A stretch of DNA of 64,000 nt, taken from Candidatus Borrarchaeum weybense. Its GTDB lineage: Archaea; Asgardarchaeota; Sifarchaeia; Borrarchaeales; Borrarchaeaceae. Location: contig JAHQJS010000005.1 in assembly GCA_019057385.1 (NCBI GenBank), forward strand, positions 379,130 to 443,129, given 5' to 3'. This document shows, one piece after another, positions 12,587-51,765 of this stretch (the first letter of the stretch is position 1; every line of letters begins with the position of its first letter). The notes beneath the pieces were generated by a model, which did no database searches, was not told the DNA's origin, and saw only the letters and a program-made list of their open reading frames with translations. The position numbers were made by a program, and so were the translations under genes.

Positions 12587-13312
12587 ATGAAAGTATTAGC
12601 ATTCAACTGCAGTCCAAGTATGGACAAGGGAAACACAGCTCTGATCTTCAATCCCTTTGTTGAGGGGATGAAGGAAGCTGGGGCTGAAGTCGAACTTTTC
12701 TACACGAACAAGCTCAAGATCAACTTTTGCACCGGGCAGGTTAATTGCTGGTTCAAGCATCCCGGAAAGTGCTATCAAGACGATGACATGAACATGCTCT
12801 ACCCCAAACTACGCGAAGCGGACGTCTGGGTGTTCGCCACTCCGGTTTATTGGGACGGAGTCACCGGACCGATGAAGACACTTATTGACCGAACGGCGCT
12901 CCCGCTTTTCGGGCCATTTTACGAGCTACGCGATGGTCATACGCGGACTATTTGGCGCGAAGGAACCACGTCCACAAAAGTCGTGTTGGTATCCGTTGGT
13001 GGCCAGTGGGAGATGGACATCTTTGACCCGCTACTTGTCTACATGAAGGCCATGTGCAAGAACTCAAACTTTGAATTCACAGGGGCTTTGCTGAGACCTC
13101 ATACACATGCAGTGAAGCCTATGATAGAAAGTGGTGCTGTAAACGACATCTTCGAAGCGGCGAAAGAGGCTGGTCGCCAACTCGTGAAAAATGGTAAAAT
13201 GTCCGCCGAAATCCTAAAGACCGTTAGCCGTGAACTTGTACCCCAGAAGCCGTATATGGAAGGGTTCAATCAGTTTATCCAACAGATTCTAGACTCAATG
13301 AAGAAAGAATAG
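12587..13312 (+). CDS. flavodoxin-family / iron-sulfur flavoprotein (NADPH-dependent FMN reductase-like)
   Basis: MKVLAFNCSP...GNT, CTG..NCW....G.C...DDM, ATPVYW.G..G.MK..IDR. Confidence 0.88.
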   Translation: MKVLAFNCSPSMDKGNTALIFNPFVEGMKEAGAEVELFYTNKLKINFCTGQVNCWFKHPGKCYQDDDMNMLYPKLREADVWVFATPVYWDGVTGPMKTLIDRTALPLFGPFYELRDGHTRTIWREGTTSTKVVLVSVGGQWEMDIFDPLLVYMKAMCKNSNFEFTGALLRPHTHAVKPMIESGAVNDIFEAAKEAGRQLVKNGKMSAEILKTVSRELVPQKPYMEGFNQFIQQILDSMKKE

Positions 13313-13326
13313 TATCGACGGATAGG

Positions 13327-13545
13327 GTCAACTACCCCACCCTAAAGGGTAGGTGCTTGGGAAACCAAGTTCCTTAGTTGATTAGAGGGCTTCCCTTTGT
13401 GGGAGCAGCAGTTGTTTAGGTCATGACACCCTGGGGTGCTCCACTAGCCCCTTGCTCTGTCGTCGGTGGTTAAAAGTCCTGAGGGGTAGGGACGGTGCTG
13501 CCGATGCCAAAAGCCTTTACAACAGCCTCGAAGTGGACCTACTTC
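13327..13545 (+). ncRNA. IscB-type omegaRNA / HEARO-like RNA scaffold (3' end approximate)
   Basis: GTCAACTA/TAGTTGAT helix, CTTGG-GAAA-CCAAG hairpin, GTTGTTTAGG/CCTTTACAAC helix, ACACCCTGGGGTGCTCCACTAGCCCC with TCCACT(13440)/AGTGGA(13532) pseudoknot. Confidence 0.82.
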
Positions 13546-13705
13546 CTTGGTGTTGGGAGCGGCGGGACTTGAGAGTACCCGTCATTAAAACACCACCCGA
13601 GGTTGGGTACACCAACCCCTGTCTCCGCAGAAAGGGTTGTGTGAACAACATCCGACCTCAATTCCTCTCCGCCCTAAAGGGCTGGAGTCTCCTTGAGGTA
13701 ATCTT
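13327..13705 (+). mobile_element. non-autonomous IS200/IS605-family (IscB-type) element with both ends and no protein gene
   Basis: left end GTCAACTACCCCACCCTAAAGGG; right end CAATTCCTCTCCGCCCTAAAGGGCTGGAGTCTCCTTGAGG; followed by ATGA. Confidence 0.8.
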
Positions 13706-13871
13706 ATGATGAGGGACTTAAGGCAAGTAATTCTAATATATCTTACACACATACGAAACTTATACCAAGATTAGAACCCTACACGAATTTTTTATCGAGC
13801 TTAAGAATGAGTAATCATTTGGGACTAATACTCAAACGCTTGAACATCTAGATTAAGGGAAGGAGGAGACA

Positions 13872-14348
13872 ATGGCTATGAAAATAACGATACCGTGGGA
13901 ACTAAAATACAAATATGCTAGGGGAATGTTGACAACTCTGTTCAAAGGATTCATGTATGTGATCCGTGAGAGACATGGCGCGGCAGAAGCACTCGAAATA
14001 CATCAACTGGTCAATAAAATGGATAATAGAATACAGAATATGATCCGCACACTTAAAGATGTTTTCAAAATAGAGGAAAACGATATCGAAGCGCTTAGAA
14101 GTGTGTGGGAGATCTATCTGGACCTTACTGGGATTATAAGCACCACACTTGAGCAGTCTGAAAAACTTTGGAGACATAAAATTACTACCTGTGCCTGGGT
14201 AACAGAGCCCAAAGATCTCAGCGATTGGTGCTATAACTACTGTAGCCTTATGAACAAGTTCATAAATCCAAAGACGACCCTTGAGCGACCTAAAGCCATG
14301 TGTACAGGAGATTCAGAATGTGAATTTGTGGTTAAGATTGAAGAGTGA
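13872..14348 (+). CDS. V4R/ATC-hydrolase-like protein (paralog 6)
   Basis: IPWELKY...TTCAW...DWC...INPK...MCTGDSECEF; 3' half of the leader (GATTAAGGGAAGGAGGAGACA) upstream. Confidence 0.8.
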   Translation: MAMKITIPWELKYKYARGMLTTLFKGFMYVIRERHGAAEALEIHQLVNKMDNRIQNMIRTLKDVFKIEENDIEALRSVWEIYLDLTGIISTTLEQSEKLWRHKITTCAWVTEPKDLSDWCYNYCSLMNKFINPKTTLERPKAMCTGDSECEFVVKIEE

Positions 14349-14418
14349 CCCTTGCTCCTTATTATGAAATATATCCAAAAATAGTACAAAAACAAACAAT
14401 TTAGGGGATATGAGGGAC

Positions 14419-14925
14419 TTGGCTAAGAAATTGCAGCCGCCTTGTGCGTCGCCCAAAAGAGGGCTACCTTGGGAACTAAAATATAACTATGTTAGAGGAC
14501 AAATGACAACTCTGTTCAAAGGATTCCTATATGCAATTCGTGAAGAATATGGTGCTGCTGCCGCACTCAAAATTACTGAAAAGATGTGGAGATTTAAGGA
14601 TAGAGTAAAAAACATGATAAATACATTCTTAAGCGTTTTCGAAATACAGGGAAACGATCTTGAAAAATTAGCGGAGTTTTGGGACGTCTATTGGGAGATT
14701 CAAGGATCTGAGGCCATTATACTTGAGCGATCTAAAACAATTAATAGAACTAAAATCACGAAATGTCCATGGAGTACACCAGATCCCAAAGATATCAGCG
14801 GCTGGTGCGAAATCTGGGCAAATATTGTTAGCGAGAGTATAAATCCCAAAATTTCCACTAAACGACTTAAAGGAATGTGTGCAGGGGATCCGTATTGTGA
14901 ATACGTTTGGAGAATAGAAGACTGA
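14419..14925 (+). CDS. V4R/ATC-hydrolase-like protein (paralog 7); TTG start inferred from paralog alignment
   Basis: AKKLQPPCASPKRGLPWELKY...TKCPW...GWC...MCAGDPYCEY. Confidence 0.8.
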   Translation: MAKKLQPPCASPKRGLPWELKYNYVRGQMTTLFKGFLYAIREEYGAAAALKITEKMWRFKDRVKNMINTFLSVFEIQGNDLEKLAEFWDVYWEIQGSEAIILERSKTINRTKITKCPWSTPDPKDISGWCEIWANIVSESINPKISTKRLKGMCAGDPYCEYVWRIED

Positions 14926-14997
14926 ATCAAACATTTCAAAATCGTTCTCTAAAGTTGTCGGATATAGTAAACTCAGATTGAGGGAGAGGAGGAGACT

Positions 14998-15474
14998 ATG
15001 ACTGAGAAAATATCGATACCTTTGTTATTAAAACATGATTTTACCTTGAGAGCTTATTCATCTATCGTCAAAGGATTTTTATACGCGATCCGCGAGAAAC
15101 ATGGTGGAAACGAAGCGCTGGAAACTTACGTAAGGGTCTGCACAATGGATGATAGAATAAAGAATCTTACAAATGCACTTCTAGATATCTTCCAACTAAA
15201 GGGGAGTGATGCTGAAACAATAGGAAAGTGGTTTGAAGTCTGGTTTGAACTCACTGCATTTGAATATGCTACACTTGAGCGGTCTAAGACAAGTAGTAGA
15301 GTTAAAGTCACCAAATGTCCGTTCAAAACTGAGCCCAAAGATCTCAGTGACTGGGCTTTAATCTTCACAAATCTTGTTTCAAAGACCATAAATCCAAAAG
15401 CTACAGTTGAACGCCCTAAAGCAATGTGTGCTGGGGATTCCTATTGCGAATACATTTGGAAAATAGAAGAATGA
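14998..15474 (+). CDS. V4R/ATC-hydrolase-like protein (paralog 8)
   Basis: TKCPF...DLSDW...INPK...MCAGDSYCEY; 3' half of the leader (ACTCAGATTGAGGGAGAGGAGGAGACT) upstream. Confidence 0.8.
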   Translation: MTEKISIPLLLKHDFTLRAYSSIVKGFLYAIREKHGGNEALETYVRVCTMDDRIKNLTNALLDIFQLKGSDAETIGKWFEVWFELTAFEYATLERSKTSSRVKVTKCPFKTEPKDLSDWALIFTNLVSKTINPKATVERPKAMCAGDSYCEYIWKIEE

Positions 15475-23709: not shown

Positions 23710-23739
23710 ATAAAATCCTCCAAATATCTGTAATTTCAT

Positions 23740-23785
23740 AATTTACCTCGCACGGAGACCCTCCAACTTCATGGGGGTAGTTGAT
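23740..23785 (-). mobile_element. fused left/right-end mini-element related to the 13327 element
   Basis: ATCAACTACCCCCATGAAGTTGGAGGGTCTCCGTGCGAGGTAAATT followed by ATGA, as at 13705. Confidence 0.6.
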
Positions 23786-43513: not shown

Positions 43514-43543
43514 TATGGAAGTTCACGACTCCTAGTATTGGAT

Positions 43544-43573
43544 GCTCCTACCCTTTAGGTTGGGGTAGTTGAC
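43544..43573 (-). mobile_element. isolated copy of the IscB-type element left end
   Basis: GTCAACTACCCCAACCTAAAGGGTAGGAGC matches 13327-13356 at 28/30 nt. Confidence 0.75.
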
Positions 43574-51656: not shown

Positions 51657-51765
51657 GGGCCCGTGGCCTAGCCAGGATAGGGCGCAGGCCTTCTAAGCCT
51701 GATTGCGGCCCTCAAATTGATTGCTGCAGAGGAGACCGCGAGTTCAAATCTCGCCGGGCCCGCCA
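51657..51765 (+). tRNA. trnR: tRNA-Arg(TCT) with ~31-nt intron in the variable region (~51702-51733)
   Basis: acceptor GGGCCCG/CGGGCCC, anticodon arm CAGGC-CT-TCT-AA-GCCTG, T arm GCGAG-TTCAAAT-CTCGC, CCA. Confidence 0.9.

Follow-up and report, generated by a model that had tools for sequence, protein, structure and literature searches.

A protein-less derivative of an IscB transposon with an intact omegaRNA scaffold in Candidatus Borrarchaeum weybense

Introduction

The window analysed here, a stretch of 64,000 nucleotides from Candidatus Borrarchaeum weybense (assembly GCA_019057385.1, contig JAHQJS010000005.1, positions 379,130 to 443,129 of the forward strand), raises the question of what an omegaRNA scaffold of the IscB type is doing at a place where no nuclease gene follows it, and which proteins might move it or use its RNA. 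An initial annotation, made from the sequence alone, had described the locus as a guide cassette with a readable guide and a candidate ATGA TAM.

Several published systems bear on the question. ISC transposons have a 5'-GTCA end, insert at N/ATGA targets (the slash marks the point of insertion; ATAA, ATCA and GTGA are variants) and have ends in common with tnpB elements of opposite orientation (PMC4810608, Kapitonov et al. 2016). The guides of IscB lie 5' of the scaffold and outside the element (PMC12558985, 10.1101/2023.03.14.532601). PATE-like elements carrying an omegaRNA depend on a nuclease provided in trans (Meers et al. 2023, 10.1101/2023.03.14.532601), and according to the account given in PMC9581776 of Altae-Tran et al. 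2021, standalone omegaRNAs are functional with IscB.

An omegaRNA scaffold between two transposon ends

The initial annotation had read at this locus an intact omegaRNA (HEARO) scaffold with its pseudoknot, both ends of an insertion sequence and no nuclease coding sequence, beginning 14 nt after a flavoprotein stop codon; all of these points are borne out. The Rfam HEARO model (RF02033), named there as a check, gives a strong match on the plus strand (cmscan; 129.7 bits against a gathering score of 83, E 1.4e-26). The match spans model positions 1-211 of 211 and is untruncated, all but one of the five pseudoknot pairs are standard, and it is one of two above-threshold Rfam matches in the window. 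The minimum free energy fold of 13311-13640 is unexceptional against shuffled sequences (z -1.35) and adds nothing to the covariance model. The features of the element are listed in Table 1.

Table 1. Features of the window element (window coordinates), its full-length sister copies (genomic coordinates) and the filled/empty pairs found at other loci.
Feature	Position	Strand	Evidence
Non-autonomous, IscB-deleted ISC (IS200/IS605-type) element, 379 nt	13327..13705	+	Genome BLAST bounds, sister copies, filled/empty comparisons
Predicted guide AGTATCGACGGATAGG, 16 nt of host sequence adjoining the scaffold on its 5' side	13311..13326	+	Position relative to HEARO start
omegaRNA core (HEARO, RF02033) including pseudoknot	13327..13542	+	129.7 bits, full model; helices with compensatory changes
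Subterminal hairpin, omegaRNA-proximal end (RE, TnpA convention), CCCCACCC TAAA GGGTAGGTG	13335..13355	+	Alignment of copies
Conserved middle module: old RBS GGGAG (13555-13559), TTG and five IscB codons (13569-13583), then ~70 nt	13543..13654	+	
TAM-proximal end (LE, TnpA convention)	13655..13705	+	nhmmer profile of ends, E 9.9e-19; homologous to full-length IscB element ends
Parts of the TAM-proximal end: outer stem ACCTCAA/TTGAGGT; inner hairpin CTCCGCCC TAAA GGGCTGGAG; tail AATCTT	13667-13687 (inner hairpin)	+	
ATGA target site / TAM, host DNA outside the element	13706..13709	+	Kept in six empty sites
Sister copy, closest, 94% identical	C7:566611-566991		
Sister copy	C4:921388-921768		
Sister copy	C8:18129-18516		
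Filled/empty pair L039	caatccaa-[element]-ATGA-agttac		
Filled/empty pair L046	aagaaaaca-[element]-ATGA-att		
Filled/empty pair L047	acaacgaac-[element]-ATGA-aatcgagg		
Filled/empty pair L054	[element]-ATGA-ag		
Filled/empty pair L042	gagatc-[element]-GTGA-gggttag		
Filled/empty pair L045	aagatta-[element]-ATAA		

No RRXRR/HNH reading frame lies 3' of the window scaffold, unlike the ~13 copies in the same genome that precede IscB, and the sole open reading frame of the element region (13452-13709) has no family match in a Pfam search. Of IscB there remain the ribosome-binding sequence, the TTG and five codons (MRVPV); identity with the IscB start region of full-length elements is exact over 15 nt and goes no further. 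Of the 22 copies that have the start motif, about half have a frameshift or an internal stop in the frame that runs on from this TTG, and no reading frame is conserved across copies in the middle module. With so short a remnant and a frame so often interrupted, the window copy is an internal-deletion derivative and not a gene. The ~70 nt that follow the IscB codons are common to all subfamilies of the short element and absent from full-length elements.

Two further readings of this region were rejected. An IscB coding remnant at 13587-13676, aligned to IscB residues 238-273, is marginal by blastx against the IscB proteins of the genome (E 0.04-1.2) and too weak to accept. An 'inner end' at ...GGGTTGT/GTGA (13642) was discarded, as both copies in its favour (C7:348633 and C5:11388) have diverged outer hairpins.

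There are subterminal hairpins at both ends of the element and no terminal inverted repeats. The stretch 13327-13705 is confirmed as a protein-less derivative of an IscB transposon that has kept the omegaRNA scaffold and both ends. The first bases of the predicted guide are the last two of the flavoprotein stop codon; its length of 16 nt is an assumption taken from known IscB systems, and the 16-, 14- and 12-mers of this flank are each unique in the genome.

Sister elements in the genome and in relatives

The genome of the window comprises 4.18 Mb in 8 contigs at 37% GC. A search of it for iscB, isrB, tnpA and further copies, which the initial annotation had proposed, found ~13 IscB genes, four further genes of the IsrB type, one tnpA and 36 HEARO loci, 28 of the latter over the Rfam cut-off. 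The scaffold of the window copy scores as high as those linked to IscB. When 13200-13900 was compared with the genome by BLAST, the alignments to the full-length sister copies stopped sharply at 13327 and 13709; the segment 13529-13709 is also present in more than 10 copies with a different scaffold subtype.

All 36 genomic copies open with GTCAA, and their left flanks are unrelated, each being unique. At the other end the short copies close with ...TCCTTGAGGTAATCTT followed by ATGA, and full-length elements end homologously, with ...CCAGAGGCGATTTCA followed by ATGA or GTGA. Pairing of scaffold starts with a profile of the right end yields two size classes, at least 15 short copies of 365-419 nt and ~10 full-length ones of 1.52-1.54 kb. 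The 3' ATGA flank that the annotation expected in other copies is conserved, being present after the element end in 17 of 24 paired copies (GTGA 3, ATAA 3, ATCA 1, AAAA 1). Short copies thus defined equal or outnumber nuclease-bearing copies in this genome, and four genomes of the same genus all carry copies of the 383-nt unit (element plus ATGA), at other sites.

Some smaller repeats were seen in passing. A 46-nt single-hairpin mini element on the minus strand of the window (23740-23785) starts with ATCAACTACCCC and has the tail ...GAGGTAAATT, followed by ATGA at 23736-23739 on the same strand; it looks like both ISC ends collapsed around one hairpin. Another of 47 nt, also on the minus strand (43527-43573), reads GTCAACTACCCCAACC TAAA GGGTAGG, ...CTAGGAGTC, followed by GTGA at 43523-43526, and its tail is similar to the right ends of full-length IscB elements. 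An unrelated repeat of ~93 nt occurs in ~45 genomic places at 80-95% identity, for example at C7:785725-785825 and in the left flank of locus L034 (1-138). The window also holds a tRNA gene on the plus strand (51657-51762, 56.5 bits) with an insertion of ~32 nt past the anticodon arm, that is, an intron-containing archaeal tRNA.

Target site and insertion

For 20 further copies from relatives we checked whether the two flanks are adjacent in the window genome, which gave nine candidate filled/empty pairs, six of them clean (Table 1). Insertion was at N/ATGA in four of these and at N/GTGA and N/ATAA in one each; the empty site retains the motif, and no sequence is duplicated. By these six pairs the window boundary is placed at 13705/13706, with ATGA at 13706-13709 as host target DNA. 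The short elements form a mobile family; they insert 5' of ATGA, duplicate nothing there, and are polymorphic among the species of the genus.

The same six pairs uphold the junction that the initial annotation had drawn for the empty site, GGATAGG/ATGATGAGG, with a guide ending at 13326, and the predicted empty site of the window locus would accordingly read ...TATCGACGGATAGG/ATGATGAGGGAC. In the four same-genus genomes, neither the flavoprotein gene nor the right flank is matched at the DNA level, and in the DNA runs searched no contig joins 13326 to 13706; with no empty allele recovered for the window locus itself, its empty site is reconstructed from the other loci.

One site is occupied differently in two genomes. 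At the locus L033 of a relative there is a short element, and at the corresponding place in the window genome (C6:209200-209560) a decayed short element of the other subfamily lies just upstream, with ATGA absent. Elements seem to have inserted repeatedly at this site.

Candidate partner proteins and a proposed mechanism

At ~13 of the HEARO loci, an open reading frame of ~400 aa begins ~270 nt after the scaffold start. These proteins have RRXRR and HNH domains and match solved IscB structures, including OgeuIscB, with E values from 1e-38 to 1e-46. IsrB-type proteins of 315-449 aa, with RRXRR and no HNH, are encoded at four HEARO-linked loci (C8:112942, C6:254588, C6:821142 and C4:509707). The four RRXRR-only loci (for example L026:448-1674, minus strand) have a distinct scaffold subtype and are candidates for IsrB-like nickases.

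By clustering of the 36 scaffolds, the window copy belongs to a set of six members, made up of five short elements and one full-length element. The latter, at G000:C3:53582-55101 on another contig, has a scaffold 88% identical to that of the window copy (12% of positions differ) and an IscB reading frame without stops, and by scaffold grouping its IscB is the best candidate partner for the window RNA. The closest relatives of this protein, at 71-84% identity, are from Candidatus Borrarchaeota, Borrarchaeum yapensis, Sifarchaeum marinoarchaea and Promethearchaeota; at ~60% identity there follow Heimdallarchaeota, Methanosarcinales, Woesearchaeota and others.

A single Y1_Tnp (tnpA) gene is present in the genome (131 bits, G000:C7:194221), beside tnpB. 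The right end of this tnpA-tnpB element, ...GGGTGGGGTAGTTCAC, is nearly identical to the reverse complement of GTCAACTACCCCACCC (13327-13342). This mirrored end fits one TnpA that may mobilise both the tnpB and the ISC element types; the left ends of the tnpA and ISC elements are only loosely alike.

The best explanation overall, to which we give a probability of about 0.8, is that the window copy is an ISC deletion derivative moved by TnpA in trans, the RNA of which is used by an IscB made elsewhere. On this account TnpA would excise and insert the element as single-stranded DNA by way of the two subterminal hairpins. Transcription entering from the co-oriented flavoprotein gene would yield an RNA with ~16 nt of flank at its 5' end followed by the scaffold, and an IscB made elsewhere, with the G000:C3:53582-55101 protein as the foremost candidate, would bind it. 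After excision, the restored joint, consisting of the guide match and ATGA, would be cut and then repaired from the sister chromosome still carrying the element. The copy would thereby be retained without the cost of a nuclease of its own, as a parasite of IscB elements.

Constraint on the RNA

We aligned 15 protein-less copies of the window scaffold group, drawn from five genomes and 82-94% identical to the window copy. Double compensatory changes are seen in nine of 66 predicted pairs, and broken pairs are few. The compensated pairs include the helix at alignment columns 63-66/215-218, which is the counterpart of the HEARO pseudoknot. Part of this signal could reflect recombination with IscB-bearing elements and not selection on the short copies themselves. 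The pairs of the TAM-proximal hairpin also co-vary. The middle module is highly conserved across subfamilies and its predicted helices show little covariation.

Among the short elements of the five genomes, the hairpins at the two ends are alike within an element and change jointly from one subfamily to another. In one subfamily CCACCC-TAAA-GGGTAGG occurs together with CCGCCC-TAAA-GGGCTGG, and in a second CCCTAAC-AAG-TTAGGG with CCCCAA-CAAG-TTGGGG. Such joint change of the two ends is as expected if one transposase recognises both.

Expression of the family

In two metatranscriptomes, contigs at least 90% alike to the element cover 13327 to ~13635, with summed depths of hundreds to thousands in one sediment set; these are assembled contigs from organisms that the data do not specify, from which ends, strand and level are unreadable and in which DNA may have been carried over. 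DNA runs cover the element to 13709, with loose ends exactly at 13326/13327 and 13707-13709. We did not accept the stop of RNA coverage near 13635 as a 3' end, as loose ends are present at this place, the terminal hairpin varies between subfamilies, and the stop may reflect no more than the 90% threshold. At the same likeness, neither metatranscriptome has contigs that bridge the flank of the window copy itself and the scaffold. The omegaRNA family thus appears to be an abundant RNA in nature, with the window copy not among what was seen.

Some RNA contigs (run X17; depths 16-267) join ...GCAGAAAGG (~13623-13635) through 10-22 foreign letters to the scaffold start GTCAAC. Such joints of middle module to scaffold are absent from two DNA runs, and a tandem DNA arrangement as their source was found neither in the window genome by regular expression nor in the five genomes of the genus (G000-G004) by pattern search. 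It is conceivable, and in our judgement rather doubtful, that the short elements make a ~320-nt RNA, with a 10-18-nt guide and a constant 3' terminus around 13633-13642, which is end-joined as a circular isoform or arranged as scaffold-spacer arrays in an unsampled relative. The same junction contigs could arise through template switching by reverse transcriptase or from an arrangement in DNA that was not sampled. Circular omegaRNA isoforms of the TnpB type have been described in haloarchaea (PMC12558985).

The alternative that survives best is that the window copy is a dead relic, perhaps moved by TnpA, whose RNA is used by no IscB and whose scaffold is intact only through the youth of the copies. 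The decaying IscB remnant frame and the lack of demonstrated expression from the window copy suit this idea, and a nearest sister copy 94% identical implies that some copies are recent. Against it, however, the helices are kept through compensatory changes, with few broken pairs, in copies that have diverged to 82-94% identity across five genomes; the scaffold scores level with IscB-linked ones, the middle module is conserved beyond what neutral decay would lead one to expect, and RNA of the family is abundant in the metatranscriptome. We regard a dead relic as unlikely.

Neighbourhood and transcription of the window copy

The element begins 14 nt past the TAG stop (13310-13312) of a 241-aa FMN_red/flavodoxin-like reading frame (12587-13312). 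It lies in the 559-nt spacer between this flavoprotein gene and three paralogous, putatively sensor-like genes (13872-15474), which the initial annotation had called V4R-like and the Pfam matches of which are weak only (ATC_hydrolase/MetOD1), and shares its strand with both neighbours. There is no T-run between the flavoprotein stop and the element, and no promoter was established for the window copy. We infer that read-through from the flavoprotein gene would make its RNA; the loading of that RNA by an IscB in trans is likewise presumed.

Among the 36 genomic HEARO loci, the element is co-oriented with the nearest upstream reading frame in 18, opposed in 6, and of undetermined relation in 12 (one-sided binomial probability for 18 against 6, ~0.011). 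At 11 of the 36, it lies no more than 26 nt from the stop of the upstream reading frame or itself provides that stop. Judged by position, this gene-end, co-oriented placement could fit host read-through that supplies the guide, and it could also stem from an abundance of ATGA targets where start and stop codons meet on the sense strand.

The same placement could be taken to mean that the host has put the structured RNA to a use other than as a guide: it might regulate or stabilise the adjoining mRNAs in cis, or act as a decoy and titrate IscB. The closeness of the window copy to a stop codon on the strand of both neighbours, and the frequency of elements right at gene ends, speak for such a takeover. 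Yet at all other sites the same element adjoins unrelated genes, the locus is not conserved in relatives, and the preference for gene ends is accounted for by the common occurrence of ATGA at start/stop junctions, so that we hold this explanation to be very improbable. That the TTG opens an autonomous micro-protein gene of 47 codons (13569-13709, ending in the TGA of ATGA) is hardly credible, since, for all that an RBS-like GGGAG stands 9 nt ahead and the frame is open to its end in the window copy and some others, the frame is interrupted in roughly half of the 22 start-motif copies, has no Pfam match and owes its conservation to the nucleotide level.

Discussion

We now return to the preferred reading, an ISC deletion derivative served in trans by TnpA and IscB, and compare it with what has been described. 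Like ISC transposons (PMC4810608), the window element starts with GTCA, has subterminal imperfect hairpins, lacks terminal inverted repeats and target duplication, and is inserted at N/ATGA; also as in those transposons, it appears to share ends, in opposite orientation and most clearly at the scaffold end, with a tnpB element of the same genome, and its mobilisation would depend on a Y1 transposase encoded elsewhere. It differs in having no iscB and in its host, an Asgard-type archaeon, whereas the hosts in that paper are bacteria and Methanosarcina.

With PATEs and standalone omegaRNAs it shares the character of a short IS200/IS605 derivative that has no protein gene and has kept its ends and omegaRNA, with nuclease and transposase to be drawn from elsewhere. 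Published examples of omegaRNA-encoding PATEs are mostly of the TnpB type and from bacteria (10.1101/2023.03.14.532601), whereas the window scaffold is of the IscB/HEARO type. Unlike PATEs, moreover, the short family has a conserved middle module of ~100 nt that is missing from full-length elements. As in the HEARO RNA (RF02033) found upstream of IscB, the full model with its pseudoknot is matched right at the terminus of the element, and the guide is external to the element; in contrast to that arrangement, no HNH/RuvC reading frame follows the window scaffold and five codons are left. The TAM of DtIsrB is NTGA (PMC9581776), and the flanking motif ATGA (sometimes GTGA), which is read here from insertion sites alone, fits this type.

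ISC elements, the N/ATGA target, PATEs and standalone omegaRNAs have all been published, and the window element is conceptually nothing new. Its interest is that it is a well-bounded natural IscB guide RNA that stands apart from its nuclease, with guide, TAM and candidate partner IscB all readable. To our knowledge, OMEGA systems have hardly been examined in Asgard-type archaea. The presence in this one genome of at least 15 natural guide/scaffold variants beside ~13 compact (~400 aa) IscBs provides material for testing how far scaffolds supplied in trans are tolerated.
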